The notes beneath the pieces were generated by a model that worked only from the letters and a program-made list of their open reading frames with translations, made no database searches and was not told where the DNA came from. Shown here one piece after another: positions 12,511-36,046 of a stretch of DNA of 64,000 nucleotides. The stretch's first letter is position 1; the number at the start of each line of letters is the position of its first letter. The DNA is from a virus. Its lineage: Duplodnaviria > Heunggongvirae > Uroviricota > Caudoviricetes. Both the position numbers and the translations under genes were made by a program. The stretch lies in the IMG/VR virus record IMGVR_UViG_2537561978_000005, one strand, 5' to 3'.

Positions 12511-15500
12511 TTGGACAAACTACTTCATTCAATCAGTGAAGCCTCCAGCTTAGGCGAACTGATTGAAATTGTTAGTCGGTTGCATAAATTACGTGCTGTT
12601 GCGACCTTTGGCGTCAGGAAAGCCGATGGCGTCAGTATTCAGAAAACACGCCGGGCAGCAAACAATGCCGCAGTAAATCTTCTTAATTCCCTTCCGCCCG
12701 GCTTCGATGGGGCGAAATTAACTGACGAACAACGTCAGATTCTTGCTGGGTATACCGGTGAAGGCGGCCTGACAGATGGTGAGGGCAGCCAATACGAATA
12801 CTACACGCCACAGTTTATGGCTGAAGGTATATGGGAGCTGTTTGCTGACTACGGTATTGATGGCGGTCACGTACTGGAACCATCAGCTGGCACGGGTATT
12901 TTCCAGGAGACAAAACGGCAGGGAATGATAATGACCAGCGCCGAGCTGTCTCCGATCTCCGGTCGAATCAACCAGCTGTTGCACCCGGAAGACGATGTGA
13001 ACATTGGGGCGTTTGAGGCTCTGGCGGCGAAAGACGCAATGTATGACCACGCTGTTGGTAACGTACCGTTTGGCGAAGGCCGTTCCGGCGTTGCAGGGCT
13101 TGATCCGGCATATGCAAACGAGAAGAACGTTGGCAATTACTTTGTGCTGCGCACGATCGACAAGGTTAAACCTGGTGGGCTTATCGTATTGGTGGTGCCG
13201 AATGGCATGACTGATGGTACGAAATACAAAAAATTGCGCGATAAAGTCAGCCGTAAAGCGGAATTTTTGGGCGCGCATCGTATGCCTTCCGGTACGTTCA
13301 GTGAATCAGGTACAGATACCGTGGTGGACGTATGGGTATTGCGTAAACACCCGGAAGCCTTCCTGGAGATGATCCCCGATACGGATGATTCGACGCTCAA
13401 ATCGGCAAACGTCCTTTGGGTTACCTTCCTCAAAGGGAAATGGTTTACAACCGAAGGGAAGCGATTTGTTTACGGCGACATGGAACGTACCAGCTTCCGC
13501 AATACCCTAGTGGTGAAAAAAGACGGTCGTGTATCCAATGAGTCGATGAAAACCGCGCTATCTCGTCGCTTTGATAGTCGCATCAATTGGGATTTGCTCG
13601 GCGTAACTACTCAGGCATGGCAGGGCGCGAAAGTGGGCGATAAACGCCTTGTAGGCGGTATCTGGCATGAGTTTGATGGTCTGAAATGGGTTCAGGACAC
13701 GACAACCAAATCCTCCGCGCTTGATGTAAGTCGATATGGTGTTTCGACGTTTGGCGATCTGCAGATCGCGTTCCAGTCAACAAACGGGATTCTGGCTTTG
13801 TCATGGGACCAGATATCGGCGATCGCGTCCGACTATCCATCGGTTGTCAGTGATGAAGTGGCAGCAATGATTCGCTTTGCTGGCAAGCAGCGAGAAAAAG
13901 ACAGGGAGCGCGTTATGCGCGGTGCACTGATAGGTCAGTTGATCAACAAGGCACTTGATTTGCGTAACCTGGGGGTGAACGTTGATGACAAACTGGCAGA
14001 TGCATCCCGCTTGGCGGCAGCAGAAGTTGCGAAGTATGGACCACCGCACGCGATTAAGCTGAATGGGCTTGCTGAAGCTGGCGCTAAAAACTGGATGACG
14101 TTCACTGGCAATGTGAAACAGGATGGTTCCACTTCTGACCTTCTGGCAGGGCGACTTGATGTAACGGATGGTGCTGCCGGTATTGACTTTACGCGTCCTG
14201 AACAAGTGATAGCACATCTTTTTAGTGATGTAGCCCTTAATCCTATAACGCTGGGCGACTTTCGTGAGGCGTTTGCTGGTGAACTGCCAGAGGACGACGA
14301 CGCGGTCCTTGAATACCTGGCGAAATTTGATGATATCGCTATTGATGGGTATGGCTGTCTGCTGCCGATGGACCGCGCCACCAGCGGCGATGTTGCAACC
14401 AAAACAGCACTGCTGGTGGGCTGGCGTGATGCGTCAACAGGTGAGCAGAAAGCGAACTTTGAGCGTCAGTTGGCGAAAATCGAAGAGAAACGCATTTTCA
14501 CGCCACTAAATAAAGTCACCGTTAATCTGAATGCCCGCTGGCTGGATCGCCGCTTGATAAAAGAGTTCCTGGCAGAGCAGGGCTATGACGAGTTTAAGTA
14601 CACTGAACCTGATCTGAAGGTCGTCGATGGCATTCTGGTATCTCCGGACGATTACGAAGGTAAGGACGGGGTATTTACCGGCTATCAGCTACGAACCGTA
14701 AACGGCAAAAACGGGAATGAGTTCAAGAAGGCCAACAATAAAGACGGCTTCCTGAACCAGTTAGAAAACTACCTGAACGGTGTTAAACCGCGTGGGCAGA
14801 ACGCTAACGAGTACCTGGATAAAATTGCTCAACTGGAAGTTAGCTTTAACGACTGGTTACGCACCCACCCGCAGGCGGATCAGATAGCCCGTGACTATAA
14901 CGACGCATTCAATGGTTTCATTCCGTTCACACATTCTGACGCACCGCTTGGCCTGGAAGGGATTAGTGGAAAGCGCATTCCTCTGACTTATCAGAATGAA
15001 GAAGTTCGGCGCTTGTCAGAAGATGGGCGTGGCATCATGGGATTTGGTACCGGGCTGGGTAAAACCACGACCGCGCTTGCGCTTGAGGCGTATAACTTCG
15101 AAACAGGTCGCACTAAACGCACGTGTATTGTTGTTCCGAAGGCGGTTTATCAGAACTGGTATCACGAGGCACAGAGTTTCTACAGTGCTGATGCCTTCGC
15201 CAATATGATGTTTATCGGTTTGGATGAAGTTCGTGATGACAGCGGAAATATTCTGACCGCGCCGGTGCTTGATGAAAATGGCGAACCACGCCTCGACAGT
15301 AACGGGCAGCCTCTTACCAGAAATGTTGTGAAAGAGTCCTCCAGCGCCGTTATCGTTCAGCGTATGAACATGATCCCGTCGTCAAATTGGCGAACGGTCA
15401 TCATGACAAAAGAACAATTCGCGTCTATCCCGCTACGAGAAAAAACCATCGAGGAGAACTCACAGCAAGCTGTCTTTAATGCTGTGGAAATGGGGCGTCT

Positions 15501-18500
15501 TGACCTGGCGTCCGGTAAACACCGTGATGCGCAGAAGAAGAACAAGATTAAGGATCAGGCCGCGAATACCGGTACAACGAAGAAGCAGAATATCCCTTAC
15601 TTTGAGGATATGAACTTCGATAGCGTGATTGCCGACGAGGGGCATAACTACCGCAACTCCTTTAATGCCGGGCGTGAAGCGGGACAACTGGCATATTTGC
15701 CTAACCCGGCAGTATCCAAGATGGCCCGCGACATGGCTGTAAAAGCTGCGTACATGATGAAACGCAACAACGGGCGTGGTGTAGTCATGCTGACGGCAAC
15801 ACCGCTGGTGAACAGTCCGATTGATGCCTTCAACATGCTGTCTACTGTCATTCCGCAGGAAGAGTGGATGCGTATGGGCATCATTACGCCTGATGATTTC
15901 GTTCGTGTGTTTGGCAAAACAGCCACAGTTCAGGTCCAGAAAATTTCCGGGGAAGTGGAAGAGAAGCAGGGGCTGGTGGGCTTCCAGAACCTTGACGGCC
16001 TGCGTGGTATTTTCCATCGTTGGACCACTCTGAAGACTGCTGCAGATGTCGGAGCGACGGTTAAAATTCCCGACATCATCGAGAACACCTTGCAGATCCC
16101 GATGACAGGGGAGCAGGAGACTGCTTATGAAGAGCTTCGTAAGCGTGCTCAGGAGTTAAGTCGCAATGATGAGCTGACAGTCGATGAAAACGGGCATATC
16201 ACTAACGACAAACCGGATGATTTCATCTTCTCCATCATCCGTGACATGGATAAGGTTGCTATAGACCCGGATCTGTATGCCAGTGCGATTACATTCCAGT
16301 TCCCCGTTGAGCTTGCAGACCAGGTAAAAGCTATTGCTGATGCCTTGCCAAAAGTAGCTGGCGGTAAAGTGGCAGATGATGTTGATGAGGCCGAGGAAGA
16401 CGGCGCTGGCGGGCTGGTCAGTACGCGTACCAGCAAGGTAGTGAAGACCGCTTTTAGTGAACATCCGACGCATGTTGAAATACGTGCCAGCATTGAACTG
16501 GAAGCTGAAATACTGAAGGCCATTGCGGCTGCCGGCATTGATATGCAGCAGGTGTCGCACCCCATCCCGCCGAAGTATGCCGCGCTGATCGAAAATCTTC
16601 GTGAAGGTCTGAAGAACGGTAAGCAGATCGTCTTTATTGATGAAAAAGCCCAGCACCAGAAGCTGCGCCGTATTATCGCCAGTGCACTGCAAATGCCGGA
16701 GCAGGAGATTGGCATTATCAATGCGACGACAGTTAGCCAGGCTGGTGGCATCAAGCTGAAGAAGGTGAATAAGCCGACCGAACCTACTCCAAACAAAAAC
16801 GGTGAATACAAAGAAGGGGCATGGGAAACCTACTACAGCAAACTTGCCCAATATGAGGATTATCTCTCCGCTAAAAATGATGCTGGCCTTGAGGGCATGG
16901 AAGGTATTGCCGCCGACTATAACGAAGGTCGCACGCGCATCATAATCTGTAACAAGAAGGCTGAAGTAGGTATTAACCTGCACATCGGGACAACCGATAT
17001 CCACCACCTGACACTACCCTGGACACCAGCCAGTATCGACCAACGAAATGGGCGCGGTGCGCGCGTAGGTTCACCGCAAGAAAAGGTCAATGTTCACTAC
17101 TATTGTGGCAAAGGCACATTCGACGACTTCCGTCTGGATACGCTGAAACGTAAGAAAGACTGGATCAAGATGGTGATGACATCCGACATGTCAGAGATCG
17201 CCAATGGTGATGCGGATGATGCTGATGAACGCGCCATTATGCTGGCGGCAAACCCGGAAGAACGCCGCGCAATCATGGCTCGCCAGGCGCAAGAGCGTGA
17301 AGAACGTCTGAAACTGAAAGCACAGCGCGAGGCCAACAATGCTCTCGATATCTACCTGAAAGCGGCAAACGCCGCCGGAAAAGATATCGGCATGATGGAG
17401 ACAGAACTGAAAAGCGCGATGGAACAGATAGAGTATTACCAGCGCAATCTTGACGACCTGATAAAAGCGGGTACGAACAGGAATGGGCAAAAATACGCGC
17501 TTGAGCAGTTGAGTAGCTACAGAAAACGTGCGCGGGTGCTGCGGTTTGCGATCACCAGGGCAAAAGACGCGGATACCATAATGAAACGCTCTCGTGGTGA
17601 TGTGGAGCGCGCTATTAAGTCTGGTGTGCTGGATATCAGTATCGATGTTATTCAGAACCCACAGGAATATATGCGCACTGACAAGAATATCCTGTTGCAT
17701 AAAGGTAGTTATTACCGTGCAGTCATTGATGATCGCGAAACAACAGCGATTGTCCGGGTGGAAAAAATTGACGGTGAAAAAGCACAATACCTCTGCCGTA
17801 TCGCCTGGCTGGATAGAGCAAGTCGTTACGCTCGAGCACCGGGGTCAATCGTTACATTGCCGTTTGACTCTGTGATTGAAGCGGTAACTTTTGAAGAGGG
17901 GGTAGCTGAATCGCGCGCAACGGCTGCGCGTGGTGTTCAGTGCCACCAGCTATCAACAATACTTACTCGCGATCAGTTCTATGATGCTATTCGCAATGGG
18001 GTAATGAATGTTATTGCTGGTAAACCTGGTAATGCATGGGGCGGTGGGTCAGCTATTAAATACTGGGCATATCGCACAGATGATGGTCAGATCGCGCTGT
18101 CATCGGCCTATGATGGCGTGATAGGCCAAAAAATCGGGCGAGCATCGGATATAGCACCTGAGCGATGGATATATCCTGATGGCAACGACGAGGCGCTGAA
18201 GCGTGAAGTGGCAAAAATACAAGCCAGTGATAACCCGCTGAATATCGTGGACGGCGAGGGATTCCTCCAGGCATTGTATGGGTATGATTACACCCAGGGA
18301 ATGCAGGCATGGGGCGCACAGGCAACGATGGATGATGTTGCCCATGAGTTCGAAAACTGGATGGCTGGGCGTGGTCTGTCAGGTCGTTCGCTTAATAAAG
18401 TCACTTCTGAAGATATTCTTAGCTTGTTCCGCAAACCGTCCGGAGAAGGTCTGGAATCATTCTGGAGGACCGTGCTGGCATACCGTTTATTCCAGGGCAG

Positions 18501-23780: not shown

Positions 23781-23855
23781 GATGGTGTAGCTCAGCGGTA
23801 GAGCAGTTGGCTGTTAACCAACTGGTCGGTGGTTCGAATCCACCCACCATCGCCA
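23781..23855 (+). tRNA. tRNA-Asn (anticodon GTT)
   Basis: Cloverleaf folds by hand: acceptor GATGGTG/CACCATC, D stem GCTC/GAGC, anticodon loop CTGTTAA, T arm GGTGG-TTCGAAT-CCACC, 3' CCA encoded. Confidence 0.85.
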
Positions 23856-23860
23856 ATTTA

Positions 23861-23947
23861 GGGGAGTTAGTCCGTAGGGGTAGCGGGGTAGACTGTAAAT
23901 CTACTGTCATTGCGACTCGGGTGGTTCGACTCCATCACTCCCCACCA
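23861..23947 (+). tRNA. Type II tRNA-like, probable tRNA-Tyr (anticodon GTA)
   Basis: Acceptor GGGGAGT/ACTCCCC, anticodon arm GTAGA-CTGTAAA-TCTAC, long variable arm, T arm GGTGG-TTCGACT-CCATC, CCA; D arm did not fold cleanly by hand. Confidence 0.5.
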
Positions 23948-23951
23948 AATT

Positions 23952-24027
23952 GCCGGTTTAGCTCAGTTGGTAGAGCAGTCGCTTTGTAAGCGAATGGTCA
24001 GCGGTTCGATCCCGTTAACCGGCACCA
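23952..24027 (+). tRNA. tRNA-Thr (anticodon TGT)
   Basis: Acceptor GCCGGTT/AACCGGC, D arm GCTC-AGTTGGTA-GAGC, anticodon loop TTTGTAA, T loop TTCGATC, CCA. Confidence 0.8.
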
Positions 24028-24481
24028 ACACAACAGGTAAGAGCATTTGTAGAGTTCGACTCTCTACCGTGGGCTTTTTCCCGCGATGCGAGCCATAAAT
24101 GCTCTTACCGTTGTGATGAAGTGCAGCTCTTTGAAGCAACCAGAAGATAAGCATCTGGCTTCACAACATAAACCGCAGGAACGACCAATAAACGGTAGTC
24201 CGTATGGAGAACACCCCGTTGAGGAAGAGGTCTGGCCGGAACCGTAACCGGCACTACAACGTTGAGAACACTGGCGTAACGGGGTCATATCCCAATCTAC
24301 GAATAAATGTTGCGTTGCAGCGTGACAACCAGTGTTCTCAACATTGTGGTGAATGCGCAGGCTGATGCGCGAAAGACATTGCAGCTATTGCGGAAAAGAG
24401 CTGTTCGGCGGGGCAATTAAACGCCCGTGAGAGTCTGAAATAACCGCAAGCCGGAGATCAGCACCGGTCGCCACAATAACG

Positions 24482-24568
24482 GGAGAGTAGGGAGCATGGT
24501 GCTCAAGCGGTCTTGAAAACCGTCCCATTGCGCAAGCGATGATGGTTCGATTCCATTACTCTCCGCCA
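24482..24568 (+). tRNA. Type II tRNA-like, probable tRNA-Ser (anticodon TGA)
   Basis: Acceptor GGAGAGT/ACTCTCC, anticodon arm CGGT-CTTGAAA-ACCG, long variable arm, T arm GATGG-TTCGATT-CCATT, discriminator G, CCA. Confidence 0.5.
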
Positions 24569-24859
24569 GTGCAACATTAAGGGTATTTGGCTAATTAAGC
24601 GAATGCCGGAAGCAGAACCGGATCACCAAATGCGTACAGGCGTCATCGCCGCCCAGTCAGCCAAATGCTCTTACCATTGCGGTGAATGCGGCTAAGCGCA
24701 CGCGGAACAGTTAAAACAGTAAAGGTGGTCTTTTTACTGGCGTAACGAGAATCCATAAGTGATCCGGCGTTAATTGTTAACTGGTTAACGTCACCGGGAG
24801 GCGCCCGGCACCGCAACCTAACAGCAATGGCGTTTTGTCTTAAAAGGTGGCTGCAAGTG

Positions 24860-24988
24860 ATGGATTTTTGGGCGTTTGCCGATAAAAACCCGGAGTGGAC
24901 ATTATTGTTTCTGCTGGTGGTTGCATACGGGGTAGAGCAAGCGGCAAAAGCCTTACGCGGTTCTGGCAAAAAGCGTAAGCGTAATTAA
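24860..24988 (+). CDS. Small hydrophobic peptide (42 aa), hypothetical
   Basis: ATG 24860 preceded by AAGGTGG at 9 nt; MDFWAFADKNPEWTLLFLLVVAYGVEQAAKALRGSGKKRKRN; below the ORF-track size cutoff. Confidence 0.3.
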   Translation: MDFWAFADKNPEWTLLFLLVVAYGVEQAAKALRGSGKKRKRN

Positions 24989-24997
24989 CAGTAATCT

Positions 24998-25073
24998 GGC
25001 CCTTTAGCTCAGTGGTTAGAGCGGGCGACTCATAATCGCACGGTCACCGGTTCAAGTCCGGTAGGGGCCACCA
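24998..25073 (+). tRNA. tRNA-Ile2-type (anticodon CAT, lysidine-type; formally also readable as Met)
   Basis: GGCCCTTTAGCTCAGTGGTTAGAGCGGGCGACTCATAATCGC...GGTTCAAGTCCGGTAGGGGCCACCA closely resembles E. coli ileX from memory. Confidence 0.8.
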
Positions 25074-25525
25074 CATTTGGTTGTAACACGGCGTATGGCA
25101 CATGCGTCGTTAGCGGTCTGGTGTAGCTGTTAGGTACCTTTTACTAACACTGCATGGGCACACCAGGTAGCCGGAATGTGCAAGCCCCGTTCATAGCGTC
25201 GGACTGCGGATTCACCATCCTGGCGATTCGGTGTGACAGCCGGAAGAGCACGGCGCACAACAGGAAAAGGCGTTTAATTAGCGTGAGCGCCGTTTCCGTT
25301 GTGGTAATTGCGGCTATGCGCTCGTGACGAAGCCATTTTCATTCACTACGTTCTGATAAGTGACGTCGCCAGGAGTGGCTAACCTGGCAGGTGGAGGCAC
25401 CACCGCCACAACTCCTTTCAATTCATCATATAGCCGCTCAGGCTGTACCCCTTAATTAATACGAAGTTACGACATCACTACCGGTACTTCCGGGGGATAG
25501 TCGCGCGTGTAAAAAAGGAAACGTT

Positions 25526-26101
25526 ATGTTAATGGCGAACGATAACGCATATACAGAAGAAGATCTCATTTTGAGTGACTTCATAGGGAAGCGTGAACGC
25601 TGGACCCAAAAGCGAGAGGAAATTTACGCCTCATTAGTTCGCAAAGGCGTCAATATCGAAACCGCACAGAGCGGCGATATGACAGTGGTAAGCGTTGGAT
25701 TGCACGGTGTAAGCGTGTCAGCAATCAATCATGAGCCATACGTTGCGTTATCCGAGTCAATGGTAAGGTTAGTTAAGTTCCTGAAATACACAGAAGCGAA
25801 TAATGTAATCATTGGCAAAAAGAATATCCCTTTTTCCTCGGCTTTTTACTGGATGATGAAAGGGCTTGATGCCCGGCGGACATCATGGCCCAAAGGGAGC
25901 TATATATCGATGTTCCGTGGCAGTATTGGCAGCAAAGAAAAGCTCTTCGAATTCTTGCCGGAAGAGGCATTCGATATTGTGGAAGGGTGCGATGTGATGG
26001 TGATGCCTCGCCTGGTAATGATGAATGGGGATTTACAGGCGCAGACAGACTGGTTTGCAACTGGTGTGGATATTATCGCGACTGACTGGGAGGCTTTCTG
26101 A
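25526..26101 (+). CDS. Hypothetical protein with DUF2829-like C-terminal region
   Basis: 191 aa; C-terminal TDWFATGVDIIATDWEAF and W..KG..RR.SW resemble the DUF2829 pattern seen more clearly in 33748..34188. Confidence 0.35.
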   Translation: MLMANDNAYTEEDLILSDFIGKRERWTQKREEIYASLVRKGVNIETAQSGDMTVVSVGLHGVSVSAINHEPYVALSESMVRLVKFLKYTEANNVIIGKKNIPFSSAFYWMMKGLDARRTSWPKGSYISMFRGSIGSKEKLFEFLPEEAFDIVEGCDVMVMPRLVMMNGDLQAQTDWFATGVDIIATDWEAF

Positions 26102-26493
26102 TGTACGGGACTACCAAATTAAGCACTCAACAGGCCACCAATATGGAGTGGTCTATCGCTAACTGTAAGATCGAGTCATGCAATGCCACGCGTACTGATG
26201 TGGGCCATAAAAGCACTATAACAGGCTATCTAGTAATGACCACCAGGGGGATAAGGGTTAGATTTCGCTGGAAAGCAGAGCAAGTAACCCCATTCAGAGA
26301 GCCATCAATGCCGCTGCAGGTTGAGCAGGATTATCTATGTTTACCAGAAATAGATGGAGGAATGCTGGTGGAGTCTGATGGTAGTAAGGCTGATTTTGAA
26401 GCCAATTTGAAGCTGGCACAGGCCGTAATCAATAGTTATCGCGGACAGTGGATCGCAAAAGTGAAACATGTTGTTCGTTTGTCTCGCTGGTAG
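26101..26493 (+). CDS. Hypothetical protein
   Basis: 130 aa, start overlaps upstream stop (TGATG). Confidence 0.5.
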   Translation: MYGTTKLSTQQATNMEWSIANCKIESCNATRTDVGHKSTITGYLVMTTRGIRVRFRWKAEQVTPFREPSMPLQVEQDYLCLPEIDGGMLVESDGSKADFEANLKLAQAVINSYRGQWIAKVKHVVRLSRW

Positions 26494-26510
26494 CATTAGA
26501 TATTTAGTAT

Positions 26511-26527
26511 TAATTTTCTAATACATT
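26511..26527 (-). promoter_or_regulatory. Operator-like motif (variant TTTCTAATA)
   Basis: 26515-26523, about 80 bp upstream of the 26602 gene. Confidence 0.3.
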
Positions 26528-26601
26528 CATCTTTTTACCAGTCTATACAGTTTTAACATTCTCATTATCATCCCCTCGGTCATTTCCTGCCCGGGGGATT
26601 A

Positions 26602-26994
26602 ATGGAACAAATCAGCAGCGCAGAAATTGCGGATATCATGATCAGGGCTGACTGCTATCTGACAGTCACTGAAATTACCACTCTCGCCAAAGAAAAATAC
26701 CCTCATCTCCATGTTTCACGAGTAAGTGTAACTAACATCATTCGTCATTTTGTTCGTTCAAGCAGGGCAATCTGTGAGCTTGATGATCGTGTTTACCCAC
26801 GAAAATACTGGTTGCATGGCCTGAACGGATATCAGTTCAAGGTGCGTGGGCGAACCCCTGAATATGGCAGTTTACTGGTTAAAAACTGTAGCAGGAAATC
26901 AGTCGAACAGGCGCGAAAAGAGCAACGAGAGCTGGTGGACATGGCGAATAAGCTGTGGAATGCCGCCGTTAAAAAGCGTGGTGTTGCTTTATGA
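26602..26994 (+). CDS. Hypothetical DNA-binding protein immediately upstream of pacA (position of a late-gene activator such as Lpa)
   Basis: 130 aa, RBS GGGGGA; synteny only. Confidence 0.3.
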   Translation: MEQISSAEIADIMIRADCYLTVTEITTLAKEKYPHLHVSRVSVTNIIRHFVRSSRAICELDDRVYPRKYWLHGLNGYQFKVRGRTPEYGSLLVKNCSRKSVEQARKEQRELVDMANKLWNAAVKKRGVAL

Positions 26995-28355
26995 GTCTGG
27001 TTAATTGGGAGGAGCACCGCGCCCGCTTTATAGCGTTGCGTGAAGAAAAAGGGATCACTGTAAAGGAATACTGTGAGGAGCATGGCCTTAGCTTCAATAC
27101 AGCCAGAAAGCATCTCAATATGAAAAAAAATGAGGTGCGGTCGCAGGTAAAGACAACAAAAAAAAGCACCAAATCACCTGAAAAAAAACGGGCGGGAAGA
27201 GCAACAAAAAAGCTGGAAGAGGGTGCAGAAAAAACAAAATTTACAGAAATTGACAATTCGCAGGGCGCAGGTTCTTTCCGAAGTATGCCGAGAAAGAAAA
27301 CTTCGGATCATGAAAATAATTCAAATAATAACAATGAGATAAAAGAATCTGTCAGGAGATCATTGCGCGAAAAAATGGCGAAAATGATCCCCGAAGAAGA
27401 TAAAAACGCCCCAAAAATTGAGGGATCTTCTGCAATGATCCCTGACGGTGCTGTGCAGCGTGCCACATTGCCAACTACGAATGTGGCTCGCGATATGATG
27501 AAGAACGGCGCAGAAGAACACCTGCGGTTAGCAATTCAAATGGCGCAAGAGCGCGCACTTCAGTATCAAAGCATTGTTGATCAGGAGGCCGAACGTCTAC
27601 AGGCGGAAATAGACGCCTTGGGCGATAAAGAGCCAGAAGGAATGCACCCTGGGCAGCGCCTTCTCGGTCTAATCAGTGACGCGGCCTACTACATGAATGA
27701 TTTTATCAGTAGGTTGGCAGCTATATATCAGTCCGAACAAAAGCTGCGACAGGGGGATGAAAAGCTTCGTCAGAGCGCTCGCCAGCAAGCATTCAAAGAG
27801 GCTGAGGCCAGAGAAAAACTCGAATTAGCACGCCTACAGGCCGAACAGCGTGGCAAAGAGATTGAATATCGCATTGGCGCTGACGCACGCGCAGCCAGAG
27901 TTATCGCCGCCGCTATACGTATGCGTGAGCGCGAGGAACTGGATGATATCGGTGTTGCTGAATACATCGAGCGCCAGGGTGTCAGCGTCCCGGCTATCCT
28001 CGCGGCGCGCGCGGCGAAAGCTATCACTCTTCTCGAACCACCTGTTTCTGACGTCAATGATGTTGATGATGAACAGCTGGACAAAGAGGCAAGGGAGTTT
28101 GCAACGCTTCAGGCTAACCATCCGCAATGGCTGGCAGAGCGCCGGGCGGATGTGGCAACCATTGTTGAAGAATTGGGGTGCGGAGATTACGACCGCAATG
28201 GCGAGCGTAAAGCTGGAGAATTCGAGGCCAACGACGAAGAGCTGGATATTGACCCTTCGGCAACGGCTGAAATTTACGGTGATTATGATGCATCTGATGC
28301 AGGGTATGACGCCGGAGATGATGATATCGCGATAGAACCGCCGGAGGATGATTAA
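26991..28355 (+). CDS. pacA: Terminase small subunit (PacA-like)
   Basis: 454 aa, N-terminal HTH-like region, Lys-rich linker, acidic C-terminus; overlaps the terminase large subunit start; GATC cluster in its 5' third. Confidence 0.6.
   Translation: MSLVNWEEHRARFIALREEKGITVKEYCEEHGLSFNTARKHLNMKKNEVRSQVKTTKKSTKSPEKKRAGRATKKLEEGAEKTKFTEIDNSQGAGSFRSMPRKKTSDHENNSNNNNEIKESVRRSLREKMAKMIPEEDKNAPKIEGSSAMIPDGAVQRATLPTTNVARDMMKNGAEEHLRLAIQMAQERALQYQSIVDQEAERLQAEIDALGDKEPEGMHPGQRLLGLISDAAYYMNDFISRLAAIYQSEQKLRQGDEKLRQSARQQAFKEAEAREKLELARLQAEQRGKEIEYRIGADARAARVIAAAIRMREREELDDIGVAEYIERQGVSVPAILAARAAKAITLLEPPVSDVNDVDDEQLDKEAREFATLQANHPQWLAERRADVATIVEELGCGDYDRNGERKAGEFEANDEELDIDPSATAEIYGDYDASDAGYDAGDDDIAIEPPEDD
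27300..27585. other. Candidate pac site region: cluster of GATC-containing hexamers
   Basis: GATC at 27306, 27386, 27424, 27437 and 27579 (TGATCC/TGATCA forms), 5 in about 280 bp against about 1 expected. Confidence 0.35.
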
Positions 28356-29863
28356 TGGCTGGCGGGCGCAAGATTAAATGCGTCACCAGCGATCCACGCT
28401 GGCGCGATATGGTAATCAAATACCGCTACAACTTTACCCAGGCTGTAGTCGATATTTTTGGGATGTTCCCCTCCCACCAGCAGCAGCAGATCATTCAGTC
28501 AGTGCAGGAAACGGGGAGTAGGACGACCGTCACGTCCGGACACGGAACGGGGAAGTCGTCCCTTACCGCGATGTTGCTGTTGATTTTTATGATCCTGTTC
28601 CCCGATGCCCGTGTCATCATTGTTGCTAACAAGATAGGCCAGGTAAAAACAGGCGTATTCAAATACGTTAAACAGTATTGGGCGAATGCAGTTAAGCGTC
28701 ATGGGTGGTTGCAGACCTATTTTGTCCTCTCTGACACCATGTTTTATGAGCGCTCCCGTAAGGGGATTTGGGAAGTTCTCTGCAAAGGTTATCGACTCGG
28801 CAACGAAGAAGCGCTGGCGGGGGAACACGCGGCACATTTGCTTCTAATTCTGGATGAAGCATCTGGTATATCTGATAAGGCGATCGGCGTAATGACCGGT
28901 GCTCTTACTGAAGAAGATAACCGGATGTTGATGCTATCCCAGCCAACAAGGCCAAGTGGTTATTTCTACGATTCGCACCATTCTCGAGCAAAAACCCCAG
29001 ACAACCCGAAAGGGATCTGGACAGCAATTGTTCTTAACTCGGAAGAATCACCGTTCGTCACACCACAATTCATCAAGGAGAAGCTTCTGGAATATGGTGG
29101 GCGCGATTCTATTGAGTACATGGTCAAGGTGCTTGGTCAGTTCCCACGAGAAATTAACGGCTATTTGCTTGGTCGTGATGAATGCGATCGCTCTGCTCGC
29201 CGCAAGGTGTTGTTGGAGAAAAACTGGGGATGGGTGGCAACGGCTGACGTTGGTAATGGGCGAGATAAGTCGGTCCTCAACATCTGCAAGGTATCAGGTC
29301 ACAGGGATAAGCGGCGCGTTGTTAACTTTAAGGTAATGGAGATGCCTGGCACTATGGACCCATTGGCCTTTGCTGACTTCATATATAACGAATGTACGCC
29401 GGAAAAATACCCGAATATAACAATCGCGGTTGATGCTGATGGTTTTGGTTCTGATACGTGTGCGCAGTTGGTGCGTCGTGGTGCGAACCCGGTACGTATT
29501 CGGTGGGGAAAACCCATGTTTGCGAACAAAGACAGGGAGCGATTTGTTAATCAGCGTGCCTACGCAAATATTATGGCGCGAGATGCCATAAAGTCAGGGC
29601 GTATGCGGATAGACAGTGACCCTAAAACGGCAGAGCAAGCGTCAAAAATCCCCTTTTTACTGAATGAAGAAGGGAAAATGGCGATGATGCGCAAAGAGCA
29701 CATGCGGCAAAAGCTAAACATCAAATCGCCTGACCGATGGGATACCTACTGCTTCACTATGCTGGTGGACTATGTGCCTGCTAATGAAGATATTGGTGCC
29801 GAAATGGCAACTTTCCGAGATCAGGTTCTGGCGGATATCGAAATGCCGGATCTGGATATATAA
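28355..29863 (+). CDS. pacB: Terminase large subunit (PacB-like)
   Basis: Walker A SGHGTGKSS, Walker B LLLILDEASGI, start overlaps pacA stop (TAATG), GGAGG RBS. Confidence 0.75.
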   Translation: MAGGRKIKCVTSDPRWRDMVIKYRYNFTQAVVDIFGMFPSHQQQQIIQSVQETGSRTTVTSGHGTGKSSLTAMLLLIFMILFPDARVIIVANKIGQVKTGVFKYVKQYWANAVKRHGWLQTYFVLSDTMFYERSRKGIWEVLCKGYRLGNEEALAGEHAAHLLLILDEASGISDKAIGVMTGALTEEDNRMLMLSQPTRPSGYFYDSHHSRAKTPDNPKGIWTAIVLNSEESPFVTPQFIKEKLLEYGGRDSIEYMVKVLGQFPREINGYLLGRDECDRSARRKVLLEKNWGWVATADVGNGRDKSVLNICKVSGHRDKRRVVNFKVMEMPGTMDPLAFADFIYNECTPEKYPNITIAVDADGFGSDTCAQLVRRGANPVRIRWGKPMFANKDRERFVNQRAYANIMARDAIKSGRMRIDSDPKTAEQASKIPFLLNEEGKMAMMRKEHMRQKLNIKSPDRWDTYCFTMLVDYVPANEDIGAEMATFRDQVLADIEMPDLDI

Positions 29864-29890: not shown

Positions 29891-30928
29891 TTACCAGAGC
29901 TTCGCGGCGTACTGCGTTTGGGGGAATGTGTATCCGTAACGTTCTTCGATTGCTTTGCCGTATTTTTTACGAGCTTCATTCAGTTTTATGCCGGTCAGGT
30001 CGTCTCCAGAGGCCATCATTACGTCTAACAATTCCAGATCCATTTTATCCAGCCTTGCCATTGCTTCACGTGATGTACGTATCTTACGCTCAATGATATG
30101 GCGAATAGCCGGATCGGCATCCTCCAGCATCTTAGCGGATTTCTGCTTAAGGCTTTCATTGCGAATATCGATGTTCCTTAAGATGTACGACTTCGCAACG
30201 TAGCTTGGCTGGTGTTTTTCCAGGTCACGAACACGATATAAGTTAAAATCGCCGAGAAGGCTGCAAGGTACCGATTCGACGCCAGAATAAATTGTAATGC
30301 TCCGGCGCTCACCAACATTATTGACAACGGGGATCGTTGTCTTCGGTAGTCTTGCGAAAACCAATGCGCCATGTGCGCCAACTCTAAAGCGAGAAAGGGC
30401 ATTGCTGCCTTCGATGTTTGTTGTCAGCACAACATCTGTATATGCCTCTTTACGCGCCCGGTAGATCTCGCCTTCAGGCTCAGCTTCAAAGAAGCGCTGT
30501 TCTTCTTCAAGAGCACCTACGATTTGAGAAAAAACCCTATTTTTCAGGCTTTTCTTTATGATTTTGTCGTATTTTTTGAGCAATTGTTCACGTGTAAATG
30601 TACGTGTTGTTGTAGCGCTTTGCACAACAACATGCGTGCTTTGATTGGTGTCCTCAATGATGAATGGGATCGGAGAATATACAGACTCAACAATGTTCGA
30701 CGCTTTGCCGTCGGCATCGCGGCACATGTCAACGAAGGCTTTCCATTCAGCAAGACATTTTTCAGCTTCTTCTAATATGTTTTGGTCATGCGTTAATGCA
30801 ACATGGCGGAATTCCTCGCCAGCATAACTGGTATCATGGAAAACAGAGTTTGCGACCACCAGCTCTTTCCACCGTTCAGCGGTTTGCAGGAACCGTTTGT
30901 ACTCTTTCTCGATCGACTTCTTACTCAT
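29891..30928 (-). CDS. Hypothetical protein; candidate master repressor by position and by operator at its own start
   Basis: 345 aa; sits between pacB and lox-cre where P1 carries c1; operator-like motif 20 bp upstream of its ATG; no sequence-level match asserted. Confidence 0.5.
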   Translation of the reverse strand: MSKKSIEKEYKRFLQTAERWKELVVANSVFHDTSYAGEEFRHVALTHDQNILEEAEKCLAEWKAFVDMCRDADGKASNIVESVYSPIPFIIEDTNQSTHVVVQSATTTRTFTREQLLKKYDKIIKKSLKNRVFSQIVGALEEEQRFFEAEPEGEIYRARKEAYTDVVLTTNIEGSNALSRFRVGAHGALVFARLPKTTIPVVNNVGERRSITIYSGVESVPCSLLGDFNLYRVRDLEKHQPSYVAKSYILRNIDIRNESLKQKSAKMLEDADPAIRHIIERKIRTSREAMARLDKMDLELLDVMMASGDDLTGIKLNEARKKYGKAIEERYGYTFPQTQYAAKLW

Positions 30929-31137: not shown

Positions 31138-31171
31138 ATAACTTTAAATAATTGGCATTATTTAAAGTTAG
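31138..31171. other. lox-like recombination site (13-bp inverted arms, 8-bp spacer)
   Basis: ATAACTTTAAATA-ATTGGCAT-TATTTAAAGTTAG; arms match each other 12/13 and match loxP arms (ATAACTTCGTATA) at 10/13; 150 bp upstream of the Cre homologue. Confidence 0.7.
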
Positions 31172-31322
31172 GCTATAATTATGGGTAGATGATCAGTATT
31201 GACATCACTGAAAATACGCGCCTCGAATCAAAGGCTTGAATCTTGAAAATTAACTTATAGCTACCCTGTCATTTTTATATTTTTCGCGTAGCGTTATCTG
31301 TATATAGAGGTTAAATAGTTTC

Positions 31323-32351
31323 ATGAGTGAATTAATTATCTCTGGCAGCTCCGGTGGTTTTCTGCGCAACATTGGCAAAGAGTACCAGGAGGCCGCAGAA
31401 AACTTTATGCGGTTCATGAATGACCAGGGGGCTTATGCGCCGAATACTCTGCGCGACCTCCGGTTGGTGTTTCATTCATGGGCGCGCTGGTGTCACGCTC
31501 GCCAGCTTGCCTGGTTTCCGATCTCACCAGAAATGGCCCGCGAGTATTTTCTTCAGCTGCATGATGCCGATCTGGCTTCGACCACCATTGATAAGCACTA
31601 CGCCATGCTGAATATGCTGCTTTCGCATTGTGGCCTTCCGCCACTTTCGGATGATAAAAGTGTTTCTCTGGCTATGCGGCGCATCCGGCGCGAAGCGGCA
31701 ACTGAAAAAGGCGAACGAACAGGCCAGGCTATACCGCTTCGGTGGGACGATCTGAAACTGCTCGACGTCCTGTTGTCCAGGTCAGAACGGCTGGTGGACC
31801 TGCGCAACCGGGCTTTTCTCTTTGTTGCATACAATACGCTGATGCGTATGTCGGAAATCTCGCGTATTCGTGTAGGAGATCTGGATCAAACAGGTGACAC
31901 TGTCACGCTACATATTTCACACACGAAGACAATAACGACCGCCGCCGGGCTTGATAAGGTGCTTTCCCGTCGCACTACCGCTGTGCTGAATGACTGGCTG
32001 GATGTTTCCGGGCTTCGCGAACATCCTGACGCAGTGCTGTTCCCGCCGATACACCGTAGCAATAAGGCCAGGATCACGACAACGCCCCTTACTGCACCTG
32101 CAATGGAGAAAATATTCAGCGACGCCTGGGTGTTGCTGAATAAAAGAGATGCTACGCCAAACAAAGGAAGATACCGGACGTGGACCGGGCATAGTGCACG
32201 CGTCGGGGCCGCTATTGATATGGCTGAAAAGCAGGTGTCTATGGTGGAGATCATGCAGGAAGGAACCTGGAAGAAACCGGAAACACTTATGCGGTATCTT
32301 CGCCGTGGCGGCGTGTCTGTGGGGGCTAATAGCCGCCTGATGGATTCGTAA
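31323..32351 (+). CDS. cre: Tyrosine recombinase, divergent Cre homologue
   Basis: 342 aa; alignable along its length with Cre from memory (WFP, VSLAMRRIRRE, RNRAFLFVAYNTLMRMSEISRIRVGDL, WTGHSARVGAAIDMA, C-terminal catalytic Tyr in RYLRR region); roughly 45% identity. Confidence 0.75.
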   Translation: MSELIISGSSGGFLRNIGKEYQEAAENFMRFMNDQGAYAPNTLRDLRLVFHSWARWCHARQLAWFPISPEMAREYFLQLHDADLASTTIDKHYAMLNMLLSHCGLPPLSDDKSVSLAMRRIRREAATEKGERTGQAIPLRWDDLKLLDVLLSRSERLVDLRNRAFLFVAYNTLMRMSEISRIRVGDLDQTGDTVTLHISHTKTITTAAGLDKVLSRRTTAVLNDWLDVSGLREHPDAVLFPPIHRSNKARITTTPLTAPAMEKIFSDAWVLLNKRDATPNKGRYRTWTGHSARVGAAIDMAEKQVSMVEIMQEGTWKKPETLMRYLRRGGVSVGANSRLMDS

Positions 32352-32353
32352 AT

Positions 32354-32370
32354 TAAATTTCTAACACATC
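32354..32370 (-). promoter_or_regulatory. Operator-like motif
   Basis: TTTCTAACA at 32358-32366 just after the cre stop. Confidence 0.35.
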
Positions 32371-32424
32371 TTTTTAGATTAACGCCTTTGCTGTAAAGTA
32401 CCCTCGCCTATTTAGGAGGGTGCT

Positions 32425-32769
32425 TTGCAGAGTCAAATCACGGAATCAAGACGCTTCAAGGTGGATGGTTACACCGTAACCTTCGCCGCTGGTGTTAAGA
32501 ACAGTCATGCTGTCGTTGTGTTCGGCATCATGACCGGGCTTGAGGCCGTCCCTGTGTTTACCCTCGAAAAAAACTGGCGAAATCTGGAGGAAGCAGAAAG
32601 CTACGTCCGGAAAGTAACCATCATTGCCGCCGAAAAACTCCTGGCCCACTATCAGGAAAATTATCGCACTATGGTCGAGAAGATTAATCTCGCTTTCACT
32701 CGCCCCACTACCGGCTTTATTGCACCGGATACTAATGCCGGTCGATATCCTGCAAGGGGGTGTCGGTGA
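32425..32769 (+). CDS. Hypothetical protein
   Basis: 114 aa, TTG start after AGGAGGG. Confidence 0.45.
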   Translation: MQSQITESRRFKVDGYTVTFAAGVKNSHAVVVFGIMTGLEAVPVFTLEKNWRNLEEAESYVRKVTIIAAEKLLAHYQENYRTMVEKINLAFTRPTTGFIAPDTNAGRYPARGCR

Positions 32770-33242
32770 AAACTTATTACCCATCTCTGAATTGTTACCC
32801 GTCTTCCTATCCAGAATTATCCGGGAAGCTGTTAGCTCTATTAGCTAAAGCACCTACGGAATGGTTTAAGCCAGTCGTTATCAATCCACACTTCCTGGGT
32901 TACGGATCTGTTCGCACTCGTAACGAACTCAAAAACCTACTGGCGCATGGATTCATTCGACACCGTGCCGGGAAAGGCTATCAGTTAGCGATTGCGCCAG
33001 AAGAGGCCGTGCGGCTATTCGCATATCGTGACAGCCAGACAAAAACTCGGGTAATAGCTCAAATACTTCATAACGGCAGCACCTATGCCCGCCAGTTTGG
33101 CGGCGACACGTCGCAGTTCTTGCGGGCGGTGCGATCGCTGGATGAGCAAGGAGTTATTGAAAGTTCCTGTCTTCCTGTTCCTACCGTTCCACATATCAAA
33201 CGTCGGGTTTACACCTTCACGCAGAGAGCTAAAAAACAATGA
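32766..33242 (+). CDS. Hypothetical protein
   Basis: About 158 aa; GTG 32766 chosen over track start 32760 for SD spacing. Confidence 0.45.
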   Translation: MKTYYPSLNCYPSSYPELSGKLLALLAKAPTEWFKPVVINPHFLGYGSVRTRNELKNLLAHGFIRHRAGKGYQLAIAPEEAVRLFAYRDSQTKTRVIAQILHNGSTYARQFGGDTSQFLRAVRSLDEQGVIESSCLPVPTVPHIKRRVYTFTQRAKKQ

Positions 33243-33733
33243 TTTACGTAAAAGTGAAACGCCTACATCCGGCAGCAAAACTTCCAGCTTATGCCACCTC
33301 CGGATCGGCGGCGATGGATTTTGAGGCTGTTGAAATAAAACCATGCGTCGATAGCAATGGTGCAATTTCCTCAAGCTGGTGGGTGTATACCGGACTGGCT
33401 ATGGAGATCCCGCCCGGCTGGTGTCTGAAACTCTATCCGCGATCAGGATTGGGCTGCAAAAAACATACTCGCCTGGCTAACTGCGTAGGAATTATCGACT
33501 CCGATTATCGCGGCGAAATCATGGCAAAACTGATTACTGATCCCGGCGGGGAAGGCGTTTGTCTCAAGCCTGGAATGGCTGTCATGCAAGGAATTTTTGA
33601 GCGTGTTGAACAAGTCTCACTAGTCGAGGTTGAGGAACTCAACGAAACGGAGCGTGGTGCTGGTGGCTTTGGTAGCACATCGGAAGGCCACTTTGAAATT
33701 AAGCGTTCACCGCTTCAGTACGAAAAGTTATAA
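33239..33733 (+). CDS. dut: dUTP diphosphatase (dUTPase)
   Basis: Motifs AAMDFEA, RSGLG, IDSDYRGE, RGAGGFGSTS in canonical order. Confidence 0.8.
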   Translation: MIYVKVKRLHPAAKLPAYATSGSAAMDFEAVEIKPCVDSNGAISSSWWVYTGLAMEIPPGWCLKLYPRSGLGCKKHTRLANCVGIIDSDYRGEIMAKLITDPGGEGVCLKPGMAVMQGIFERVEQVSLVEVEELNETERGAGGFGSTSEGHFEIKRSPLQYEKL

Positions 33734-33747
33734 GCAGAGAAAAGACT

Positions 33748-34188
33748 ATGAATAACATGGCAACGAAAGAGCTTTTTAAGTTCCGTCCCAAATACAAAGC
33801 TCACAAAAAAAATGGAACCACGGTCATCATTACGGATGACAACGGCGTGATGATTAATCTTACCGGGAGCGTAACTATTTCTGCTGGTGGCATCACCACC
33901 CAGCAAGAAGAAATCGACCTTGAAGCAGCCGACTTTTCAGACGCGCTGATGTGGCTGAAGGAAGGCAAGAAAGTTGCTCGACGCGGGTGGAACGGCGAAA
34001 ACCAATTCTGCTGGCTGGTTCCTGAAGGACAGTACCCGGCACGAATGGAAGCCATTAAGGGATATTTCCCCGGCGACCTCGTTCCGTATGGTGCTTATTT
34101 CGCCTTAAAAAATGCACAAGGTGTAGTTGTTCCGTGGGTGCCTTCAGTTGGCGACCTGCTGGCCTGTGACTGGTTTGTTGTGGAGTGA
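33748..34188 (+). CDS. DUF2829-family protein (Tad2-like candidate signal-sponge fold)
   Basis: ALMWLKEGKKVARRGWNGENQF ... GDLLACDWFVVE matches the DUF2829 pattern as I recall it. Confidence 0.45.
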   Translation: MNNMATKELFKFRPKYKAHKKNGTTVIITDDNGVMINLTGSVTISAGGITTQQEEIDLEAADFSDALMWLKEGKKVARRGWNGENQFCWLVPEGQYPARMEAIKGYFPGDLVPYGAYFALKNAQGVVVPWVPSVGDLLACDWFVVE

Positions 34189-34194
34189 TTTGAC

Positions 34195-34962
34195 ATGGAA
34201 AGCACTAAAACAATTCAATACCGCTTGCGTAATGGCCTGCTGGTGGCTGTTAACGCCGACATGTCACTGCCGTTTGACACGATTGAACGCACTATCATGA
34301 CGTATCTCGGCTTTAATGAAGAGCTGAATGAAGAGCATGGCGTAGCTATATGGAGTGATGCAGACAGCGGCGTTCGTCGTTACATCACCGCCAGGGGCAA
34401 AGACTACTCTCTGGAAGAACTGTTTGCCCTTGCGCAGTCTTTCGAATGTGTAGCATTAGACCTGTTTAATGATCCTGCTATAGCGCAACGACTTATACGC
34501 GAGCTTGGGCTATCCGTTACACCAATTATATTTAAAAATGGCAGCCTGACTGGCACATGGCGCGTAGAACGCATCTCAAACTACCTTCCATATAACCGAC
34601 AGTTAAATGGAGTAATCTCCGGCGTTAACCAGCCCGTAGCGTGTGAAAATGTAAACCTAGTTGTCGCTGTTTTGGCAACCGCATGTCGTGTTATCGGTTT
34701 GGCTAAACAGGCATTTATTCATTTCCCAAATGGTGCAGAAGGTAGCGCAGAGATTATCGCGTGTGATTTCGAATTTACCTGGATGCTACGCGAATATCTG
34801 GACCAAACAGTATTCCGTGCCGAAGAACTGGATATGTATATCACGTCAACGATTCCAGACGATGTGCGAGCTGAAGCAATCGCTACAGCCAGGGCGAAAT
34901 GCCGTGCGGCGATTGCAGAACAGGCCAAAGAAGAAGTTAAGGAAGTGGCAGATGGCGACTAA
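34195..34962 (+). CDS. Hypothetical protein
   Basis: 255 aa, RBS GGAGTGA. Confidence 0.55.
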   Translation: MESTKTIQYRLRNGLLVAVNADMSLPFDTIERTIMTYLGFNEELNEEHGVAIWSDADSGVRRYITARGKDYSLEELFALAQSFECVALDLFNDPAIAQRLIRELGLSVTPIIFKNGSLTGTWRVERISNYLPYNRQLNGVISGVNQPVACENVNLVVAVLATACRVIGLAKQAFIHFPNGAEGSAEIIACDFEFTWMLREYLDQTVFRAEELDMYITSTIPDDVRAEAIATARAKCRAAIAEQAKEEVKEVADGD

Positions 34963-36046
34963 GAGCAATATTTATAAAGATCCGCGCTGGCTGTCGCTGG
35001 TGGAGAAATATAAAGACAATTGGGTACTGGCAGCAAAAGAATTGTTTGATATTGATTTAAGCCACCAGCAACAACAAATTGTTGAAGCTATACAGCCCAA
35101 TAATGCAAAAGCTACTGTCACCACTCCGTATGGGATCGGACGACCGCAAGTGCTTGCTGTTATTAGTACCCTTTATACGATTATGTATCCTGATTCCCGG
35201 ACAGTAATTGTTTATCCAAAATCAAATGTTTGCAAAAGAGGAATTGTTGCATATGTGTGGCAATGTTGGGAGGCATTGCTGAAAAAACAACCTTTTATCA
35301 TTGAGTATTTTAAGGTCGGTGATAGCGGTCTGATGTTCAATGAATTTTGGGGAATGTGCTTTTGTAACTTCCGCCTTAACTATGAAGATAGCATTGCAGG
35401 TCACTACGCCGACCATCTTTTATTCATTATTGTGGATTCCGCACATATCAGCGATCGGGCATACAGCATTGTGTGGGCAAGCATGACTAGTGGTGATTCA
35501 CGCATATTGCTCACTTCAATTCCGTCACCAGAGGAAATAGGCTTTTTTTATGATTCACATCATGGACGTGCTTTAGCTGAAGATAATCCGAGTGGTGTAT
35601 ATAAAGCCATTAAGCTGAGTGCGGAGGATTCACCATTTATTACCCAAGAATATCTTGATCATTTTGCCGAAAGGTATGGCGGGCGAAATAGTGATGACTA
35701 TCGTCGTATGATTCTTGGTGAGTTCCCTGGTATTAGGGAGGCTGTTCTTGAATCAGATATGCCGAAGACAATGCGCTTTTCGATGCCTGATGGTAGTGAA
35801 TGGACAATACCATTACGAGTGATAGCCCGGCATCATGCGCAGCACCACGCCAAAAAACATGGCGTCACGACATTAGAATGGTTGAAATCGCACACCATTC
35901 CACTCTTCACTGCAGATCACAATGCTATCGTTGAGTGGGCAAAAACAATTCCGTGGGAGAATGTCGCTGAATACGCCCACATGCTAAAACCGCCGAAAGA
36001 CAGGCAAGAAATTAGCTGGCTGACAGCAGAAAAAATCATTGAGTGA
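34952..36046 (+). CDS. Terminase-large-subunit paralogue with degenerate ATPase motifs
   Basis: Aligns with PacB N-terminal half (DPRW, HQQQQI, FYDSHH, DNP.G, SPF, EYGGR, LG.FP) but Walker A SGHGTGKS is TPYGIGRP and Walker B LDEAS is VDSAH; track start 34661 is an upstream extension, ATG 34952 follows GGAAGTGG. Confidence 0.55.
   Translation: MATKSNIYKDPRWLSLVEKYKDNWVLAAKELFDIDLSHQQQQIVEAIQPNNAKATVTTPYGIGRPQVLAVISTLYTIMYPDSRTVIVYPKSNVCKRGIVAYVWQCWEALLKKQPFIIEYFKVGDSGLMFNEFWGMCFCNFRLNYEDSIAGHYADHLLFIIVDSAHISDRAYSIVWASMTSGDSRILLTSIPSPEEIGFFYDSHHGRALAEDNPSGVYKAIKLSAEDSPFITQEYLDHFAERYGGRNSDDYRRMILGEFPGIREAVLESDMPKTMRFSMPDGSEWTIPLRVIARHHAQHHAKKHGVTTLEWLKSHTIPLFTADHNAIVEWAKTIPWENVAEYAHMLKPPKDRQEISWLTAEKIIE

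Follow-up and report, generated by a model that had tools for sequence, protein, structure and literature searches.

We propose that the viral DNA of IMG/VR record IMGVR_UViG_2537561978_000005 carries an inhibitor of Thoeris immunity. The window, i.e., the whole 64-kb stretch that we analyzed (64,000 nucleotides), is by sequence similarity part of a D6-like (P1-related) phage-plasmid of Escherichia coli. One open reading frame in the window, hereafter ORF1 (positions 33748-34188, plus strand; 146 amino acids, ATG start, end including the stop codon), is a short allele of a Tad2-family gene. We suggest that its product is a signal sponge, which would counteract Thoeris by sequestering the ADP-ribose (ADPR) signals derived from TIR proteins, and we put the probability of this reading at about 0.72. 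A preliminary description of the same DNA had pointed to a DUF2829-like protein at ORF1 and to a second, weaker DUF2829-like C-terminus at 25526-26101 (hereafter ORF2). Both reading frames exist as described, and their Tad2/DUF2829 matches were confirmed to be beyond chance.

The Tad2-like domain of ORF1 spans residues 62-145 (33931-34182, plus strand), in agreement with the earlier placement of the match in the C-terminal 85 residues. These residues aligned with positions 2-73 of the 73-position Pfam profile PF11195 (Tad2-like, formerly DUF2829) at an E-value of 5.9e-23 and 81.6 bits, compared with a gathering cut-off of 25 bits. When the PDB was searched with the ORF1 sequence, five different solved Tad2 proteins were matched, including ModTad2 (9eib, the best match, 8e-21), Tad2 (8v3e), SptTad2 (8wjd), HgmTad2/AcrIIA7 (8kbi, 3.7e-11) and SPO1 Tad2 (8sme, 1.4e-9). 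A profile-profile comparison of the HHpred type, the check proposed in the preliminary description, was run with hhalign, using a profile of nine experimentally assayed Tad2 proteins against family alignments of ORF1 and ORF2. The ORF1 family matched this profile with 99.6% probability (E 5.8e-25) and the ORF2 family with 97.8% probability (E 1.2e-12). ORF1 also has the elements of the Tad2 fold seen in 8SME, 8KBI and 9EIB, namely an N-terminal helix, an antiparallel beta-sheet and a short C-terminal helix. It is the counterpart of D6 orf114 (YP_009914791), to which it is 98.6% identical.

The ligand pocket of the family is largely retained in ORF1. In HgmTad2, the pocket for glycocyclic ADPR (gcADPR) is built from W21, N22, G23, W87, L88, S90, T92 and D93, and binding of gcADPR is lost in the mutants W21A/N22A and S90A/T92A/D93A. 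The equivalent residues of ORF1 are W81, N82, G83, W130, V131, S133, G135 and D136, which belong to the W81-N82-G83 loop and to the C-terminal motif W130..S133-V-G135-D136..D141-W142. Among the residues mutated in HgmTad2, the sole change in ORF1 is that of T92 to G135, and a glycine also stands at this position in Tad2_68, the closest assayed relative.

Hadary et al. 2025 (bioRxiv 10.1101/2025.08.24.671296, Table S2) tested 18 Tad2 homologues against seven signalling defence systems. Each result in that table is a triplet of 96-well transformation, liquid-culture collapse and plaque-assay validation; where the 96-well transformation had failed, the gene was cloned again and plaque-tested, and an entry of 'n, N/A, y' is a positive plaque assay. 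The exact ORF1 protein was not present in the supplements of that study. The ORF1 domain is 68% identical over 82 amino acids to Tad2_68 (IMG/VR UViG_3300014659, 87 amino acids), which inhibited Thoeris of types I and II and was negative on type IV Thoeris, both CBASS systems and both Pycsar systems. Apart from the shared glycine, Tad2_68 resembles ORF1 in its short beta2-beta5 insertion (..PAGEYPARMEAVKG..VPY.AYFALKNAQG.VVPW). However, it is a bare 87-residue domain, whereas ORF1 has 61 more residues at the N-terminus, and the W-N-G loop is followed by K-G in Tad2_68 but by E-N in ORF1.

The next closest protein is ModTad2/MoTad2 from a Myroides odoratus prophage (9EIB, 8V3E), which is about 46% identical to ORF1 and, unlike ORF1, has no N-terminal extension. 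ModTad2/MoTad2 sequesters His-ADPR and binds also 2'cADPR and cUMP/cCMP (cyclic UMP and cyclic CMP), but not 3'cADPR; SPO1 Tad2 does not bind His-ADPR. HgmTad2/AcrIIA7 (8KBI-8KBM, 9KZR) and SPO1 Tad2 gp34.65 (8SME) share the fold of ORF1 at 34-40% identity, and W21, N22, G23, S90 and D93 of the HgmTad2 pocket are kept in ORF1. HgmTad2 contains a 35-41-residue insertion for cyclic dinucleotides, which ORF1 lacks. Native HgmTad2/pdAcrIIA7 is also extended at the N-terminus, by approximately 48 residues whose sequence is unrelated to the extension of ORF1. In the screen of Hadary et al., type I Thoeris was inhibited by the 151-residue HgmTad2 (10.1101/2025.08.24.671296). Therefore, an N-terminal extension is compatible with Tad2 activity.

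We suggest the following putative mechanism. The C-terminal 85-residue domain of ORF1 would form a homotetramer, as it does in all solved Tad2 proteins. The pockets at the protomer interfaces would bind and sequester, without cleaving them, the ADP-ribose-derived alarm molecules made by TIR proteins, with 3'cADPR and His-ADPR as the most probable ligands and 2'cADPR as a possible one. The Thoeris effectors of a newly entered host would then never be activated, and the element could replicate or establish itself. ORF1 is likely to be co-transcribed with the string of genes that includes a cre-like recombinase and a dUTPase. The preliminary description had envisaged a sponge of Thoeris/CBASS-type signals. 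For ORF1, the Thoeris part of that proposal is supported by the 68% identity to Tad2_68 and by the pocket residues, whereas the CBASS part is not supported, given the negative results of Tad2_68.

The preliminary description had also noted extra N-terminal regions in both proteins, which amount to approximately 61 residues in ORF1 and 102 in ORF2 outside the domain. In ORF1, as judged from DNA comparisons, this region is a remnant left by an in-frame deletion and not a functional add-on. Residues 1-20 of the N-terminal 61 (33748-33930, plus strand) are the original N-terminus, and residues 21-61 are an ancestral linker (NGTTVIITDDNGVMINLTGSVTISAGG...EEIDLEAA). The junction of the 237-bp deletion lies at 33805-33812 (plus strand) within a run of eight adenines (ctcacAAAAAAAAtgg). 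Aligned with the window, the full-length allele of L002 reads ...ctcacaaaaaCGTT... before the additional 237 bp and ...ctccaaaaaTGG after them; these 237 bp (79 codons) are missing from both the window and D6. Homologues on P1/D6-like contigs of about 90 kb are mostly 216-233 amino acids long, compared with 146 in ORF1. One of them, P0001 (225 amino acids), shares 98% identity with ORF1 in the parts common to both and reads MNN.ATKELFK.LPKYKAHK, then 79 further residues, then KNGTTVIITDD.... Such full-length alleles (P0001; P0012, 233 amino acids; SJ46 J46_0048) share the locus and the synteny of ORF1 but retain an OB-like domain of about 80 residues, and the full-length genes of L002 and L003 stand in identical synteny (c1, cre-like, orf117, orf116, dut, tad2, isaA).

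An AlphaFold2 model of P0001 shows a beta-rich N-domain at residues ~13-93 (pLDDT ~90), a linker at 97-140 (pLDDT 50-58) and then the Tad2 domain. The N-domain falls almost wholly inside the 79 codons missing from ORF1. It is modelled as an OB-like beta-barrel with a marginal yet consistent similarity to the capsid decoration protein Dec of phage L, and the linker aligns weakly with the region that follows the OB domain in Dec. We regard the resemblance of the N-domain to Dec as suggestive but not strong. ORF1 itself has no OB-like domain, and no Dec match was found in its PDB sequence search. Additionally, tblastn placed the N-domain in 'capsid decoration protein' entries of the Pseudomonas phages Dolphis and Jeremy. 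In the full-length alleles, a domain of this capsid-decoration-like kind is fused to a putative immune sponge.

The locus varies in other ways among phage-plasmids. Compared with positions 34020-34130 of the window (ORF1 residues ~92-127), the beta2-beta5 insertion exists as at least three alternative cassettes among syntenic phage-plasmids (P0012, P0058, P0076), and these cassettes may reflect a diversification of ligand specificity. One syntenic allele has G-W-K-G in place of G-W-N-G, which alters the asparagine that binds the ligand diphosphate. Among further relatives, which include P0036 and P0103, some have a PF21825 (crAss001_48-related) domain on the C-terminal side of the Tad2 domain, and in others unrelated N-terminal domains are joined at the same ...IDLEAADFSDALMWLKEGK helix. 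We considered whether the near-invariant 'IDLEAADFSDALMWLKEGK' marks a conserved recombination joint and dropped this idea; the homologue search picks its matches by shared exact words of five residues, and therefore the invariance is at least partly an artefact of ascertainment. An IS26-bounded module that carries blaSHV-2 divides the Tad2-like gene of the P1-like phage RCS47; the two parts of the gene, annotated as pseudogenes, lie about 10 kb from each other (L007 3505-3738; record 15495-15875). The locus beside isaA is a site of insertion, and RCS47 is the only element for which disruption by IS26 is documented. The IS1-associated isaB of P1 was considered as a possible remnant of a Tad2 gene, but tblastn with the N-domain gave no match in P1, and we do not claim this.

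ORF2 (25526-26101, plus strand; 191 amino acids) is a second, much more divergent Tad2-family protein with two domains. It is the counterpart of D6 orf6 (YP_009914683, 'hypothetical protein') and matches phrog_7362 over its full length. Its Tad2-like domain, identified by PF11195, hhalign and Foldseek, comprises residues 103-190 (25832-26095, plus strand); the PF11195 match has an E-value of 9.5e-10 and 39.3 bits, above the same cut-off, and the weaker C-terminus of the preliminary description is thereby upheld. A sequence search of the PDB with ORF2 did not find Tad2 and returned chance matches to malate dehydrogenase only. In its AlphaFold2 model (pLDDT 89), the C-terminal half matches 9EIB (Foldseek 7.2e-5, TM(target) 0.73). 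The N-terminal alpha/beta domain (approximately residues 10-91; 25526-25810, plus strand) is modelled as helix-helix-three strands-long helix; it has no Pfam match, and its weak Foldseek matches to domains of the double-stranded RNA-binding (dsRBD) type, at E 0.01-0.1, are a lead only.

The pocket of ORF2 differs from that of HgmTad2. The loop reads S-W121-P122-K-G in place of G-W-N-G-K-G, and the C-terminal motif is W176-F-A-T179-G-V181-D182..D187-W188. W21 and D93 of HgmTad2 thus correspond to W121 and D182, whereas N22 is replaced by P122, S90 by T179 and T92 by V181, and G23 is absent. The ORF2 family, which is small (1.84 billion cluster representatives, searched exhaustively, yielded 16 proteins at E<=0.001), conserves motifs of its own, namely R118, W121, G132, P145, P161, W176 and D187-W188, and does not conserve the loop as W-N-G. 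Three assayed 'W-P' homologues, Tad2_69, Tad2_72 and Tad2_80, resemble ORF2 in having proline for the pocket asparagine and in missing the following glycine; they are 17-30% identical to the ORF2 domain and have no N-terminal domain. Of these, Tad2_72 inhibited only type I Thoeris, and Tad2_69 and Tad2_80 inhibited none of the seven systems (10.1101/2025.08.24.671296). We consider the family and the predicted fold of ORF2 to be supported and nothing further; ORF2 is a candidate sponge, which probably binds a small nucleotide-type ligand.

ORF2 and the 130-residue gene that overlaps its stop codon (ATGA; 26101-26493, plus strand; phrog_7004, function unknown) form a pair that is conserved upstream of lpa-pacA-pacB, even where the ORF2 homologue is 55% identical (L005/L006), and the two may constitute a module. 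Five tRNA genes (Asn, Tyr, Thr, Ser-tga and Met) were predicted by ARAGORN upstream of ORF2, at 23781-25073 on the plus strand. The examined stretch of the D6 record lists only those for Asn, Thr and Ser and, with respect to the orientation of the alignment, places them on the other strand.

Several points weigh against an anti-Thoeris role of these proteins. Tad2 specificity shifts over short evolutionary distances, and therefore 68% identity to Tad2_68 leaves the ligand of ORF1 unfixed. The W-N-G loop of ORF1 is followed by E84-N85, compared with K-G in nearly all active Tad2 proteins. The residual 61 residues at the N-terminus could hinder assembly, and the N-terminal head domain of pdAcrIIA7 is known to block RNA binding. 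ORF2 lacks the asparagine and glycine that bind the diphosphate, and two of the three assayed W-P homologues inhibit nothing. The putative promoter 5' of the gene string that contains ORF1 (31152-31179) is a consensus match only. Moreover, no report of binding by, or of a phenotype for, ORF1 or ORF2 was found in the literature searched.

Among the other readings, we would give a tentative hearing, at low probability, to a joint proposal about both proteins. It holds that the phage-plasmid encodes two non-redundant Tad2-fold proteins, of which ORF2, with its W-P loop, its own conserved motifs and its dsRBD-like N-domain, would represent a subfamily directed at a signal or RNA that no sponge is known to target. 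It also holds that the polymorphism between the full-length (Dec-like OB domain plus Tad2) and headless alleles of ORF1 would be a functional switch and not neutral decay. The switch in ORF1 might be akin to the autoinhibitory head of pdAcrIIA7, or it might control an association of the sponge with the capsid.

It is somewhat less probable, and in our view unlikely, that ORF1 is a Tad2-fold sponge for targets outside Thoeris, such as, through a second pocket at the A-C interface, the cyclic dinucleotides of CBASS or the cUMP/cCMP of Pycsar, or else an undescribed signal. As a group, Tad2 proteins inhibit CBASS, Pycsar and three types of Thoeris, and some of them have two independent pockets; MoTad2, at approximately 46% identity to ORF1, binds cUMP/cCMP; and the alternative cassettes of syntenic plasmids lie in the very insertion that forms the second pocket. 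However, a much closer relative, Tad2_68, inhibited neither of the two CBASS systems nor either of the two Pycsar systems. The binding of cyclic dinucleotides by HgmTad2 and SptTad2 needs the 35-41-residue insertion, whereas the insertion of ORF1 is of the short ModTad2 type, and the canonical gcADPR pocket motifs of ORF1 are intact.

A further, rather improbable alternative is that ORF1 is a decaying remnant, i.e., that the deletion broke a two-domain protein and left a translated but functionless reading frame. The deletion did remove a confidently folded N-domain, and full-length and short alleles coexist among plasmids that are more than 97% identical. The locus is also unstable, as seen in the split gene of RCS47 and in P0028 (241 amino acids, on D6-like contigs of up to 88.6 kb), in which the dUTPase is fused in frame to the Tad2 domain (...ETERGAGG|ITTQQEEIDLEAADF...; window counterpart 33239-34188). 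The deletion in P0028, which appears to span from GAGG in dut to SAGG in the Tad2 linker, is independent of that in ORF1, and the Tad2 domain was spared again. In ORF1, however, the reading frame is preserved across the deletion and the Tad2 domain remains complete; this domain alone is sufficient in the characterized members of 87-104 amino acids, and these active proteins have little beyond the domain itself (10.1101/2025.08.24.671296). With 527 contigs of E. coli and Salmonella, the exact 146-residue protein is the commonest sequence of its cluster. Among the best 40 plasmid matches, 13 have the short allele and 27 have the allele that is 237 bp longer. The deletion is common to D6, and ORF1 differs from D6 orf114 by nine synonymous and two non-synonymous changes. 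These sequence differences, although small in number, point to purifying selection on the short allele. Because the deletion is in frame, the Tad2 domain is intact, the protein is found on 527 contigs, the short allele is carried by 13 of the best 40 plasmid matches and the changes are mostly synonymous, we think that the short allele is no wreck.

We consider it very unlikely that ORF1, ORF2 or both are RNA binders that resemble AcrIIA7 and capture structured RNA such as tracrRNA in the tetramer groove. The DUF2829 protein AcrIIA7 binds tracrRNA through a groove with K58, K66 and K71 (PMC13133391), and ORF1 has K71 and R79 at two of these three positions. However, in place of the third essential lysine ORF1 has E84, a reversal of charge, and the basic groove of AcrIIA7 is thus not reproduced; another group, moreover, found HgmTad2 to be without anti-Cas9 activity. 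A dsRBD-like N-domain in ORF2 would fit an RNA role, but the Foldseek matches are weak and involve a very common alpha-beta3-alpha topology. E. coli and Salmonella are not known to possess type II CRISPR or tracrRNA, which also counts against such a function. Finally, a role of ORF2 as a toxin of a type I toxin-antitoxin system can be practically dismissed: the sole support is the source name 'MW1434 family type I TA system toxin' on some cluster members (others being 'Thoeris anti-defense Tad2 family protein' and 'DUF2829'), whereas NCBIfam release 20 gave no match at E<=0.1 for ORF1, ORF2 or P0128, and toxins of this type tend to be small and hydrophobic peptides, unlike the 191-residue, two-domain protein with a Tad2 fold modelled here.

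The surroundings of the anti-Thoeris candidate ORF1 are those of a mobile element. D6 is by its record and annotation a P1-related phage-plasmid, and the window is 97.7% identical to Escherichia phage D6 over 32000-36000 and 96.6% identical over 24500-27500. Two non-mobilizable 95-kb E. coli plasmids (NZ_CP074704.1 and NZ_CP117014.1) match the segment 33239-34962 at 100% identity. In the stretches compared, the identity to D6 and to these plasmids places this Tad2-family member on a mobile element. According to the D6 annotation, pacA (26991-28355) and pacB (28355-29863) follow ORF2 and its partner, and the c1 repressor gene lies on the minus strand at 29891-30928.

ORF1 belongs to a string of plus-strand genes (31323-34962), assigned by the D6 annotation and, for the dUTPase, also by a Pfam match, which runs from the recombinase gene to isaA. 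It comprises a cre-like tyrosine recombinase gene (31323-32351), the small orf117-like (32425-32769) and orf116-like (32760-33242) genes of unknown function, the dUTPase gene dut (33239-33733), ORF1 and an isaA-like gene (34195-34962). These genes overlap or are tightly packed, with 14 bp between the dUTPase stop codon and ORF1. A sigma-70-like promoter sequence, TTGGCA-16-TATAAT (11/12), was found by the consensus scan only, at 31152-31179 on the plus strand and 5' of the recombinase gene; the same scan found no promoter-like site between it and ORF1. The next gene (34952-36046, plus strand; 364 residues) begins within the end of the isaA-like gene; D6, whose similarity stops near 34936, lacks it, and other D6-like plasmids (L003) have it. 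Pfam gave no matches for the orf117-like, orf116-like, isaA-like and 364-residue genes, and nothing usable was returned by NCBIfam and PADLOC for ORF1, ORF2 or the neighbours.

The Tad2 identity of the flagged gene is correct but already known, and it is ordinary within current knowledge. Both genes already bear a DUF2829/Tad2 label in public records. RefSeq labels D6 orf114 a 'DUF2829 domain-containing protein', and identical or near-identical proteins in NCBI and UniRef are named 'DUF2829' or 'Thoeris anti-defense Tad2 family protein'. Among phage-plasmids, 93% of the D6-like ones and 56% of the P1-like ones have been reported to carry a Tad2/AcrIIA7 anti-Thoeris match (10.1101/2025.09.12.675607). 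We found no earlier description of the in-frame deletion behind the short allele, of the Dec-like N-domain of the long alleles, of the alternative cassettes of the insertion that determines specificity (including the allele with lysine for the pocket asparagine), or of the pocket divergence and two-domain architecture of ORF2, all of which are modest refinements.

E. coli, Shigella and Salmonella, clinical lineages among them, commonly carry D6-like phage-plasmids. If ORF1 is active, these elements carry a ready-made inhibitor of Thoeris-type TIR signalling, which could aid their establishment in new hosts and incidentally weaken host defence against other phages. Such activity would be an expected extension of published work. 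Less expected are the plasticity of the locus, with its domain deletion, dUTPase fusion, pocket cassettes and disruption by IS26, and the presence of a second, pocket-divergent paralogue, ORF2. Both the plastic locus and ORF2 could extend the range of ligands known for Tad2 proteins.

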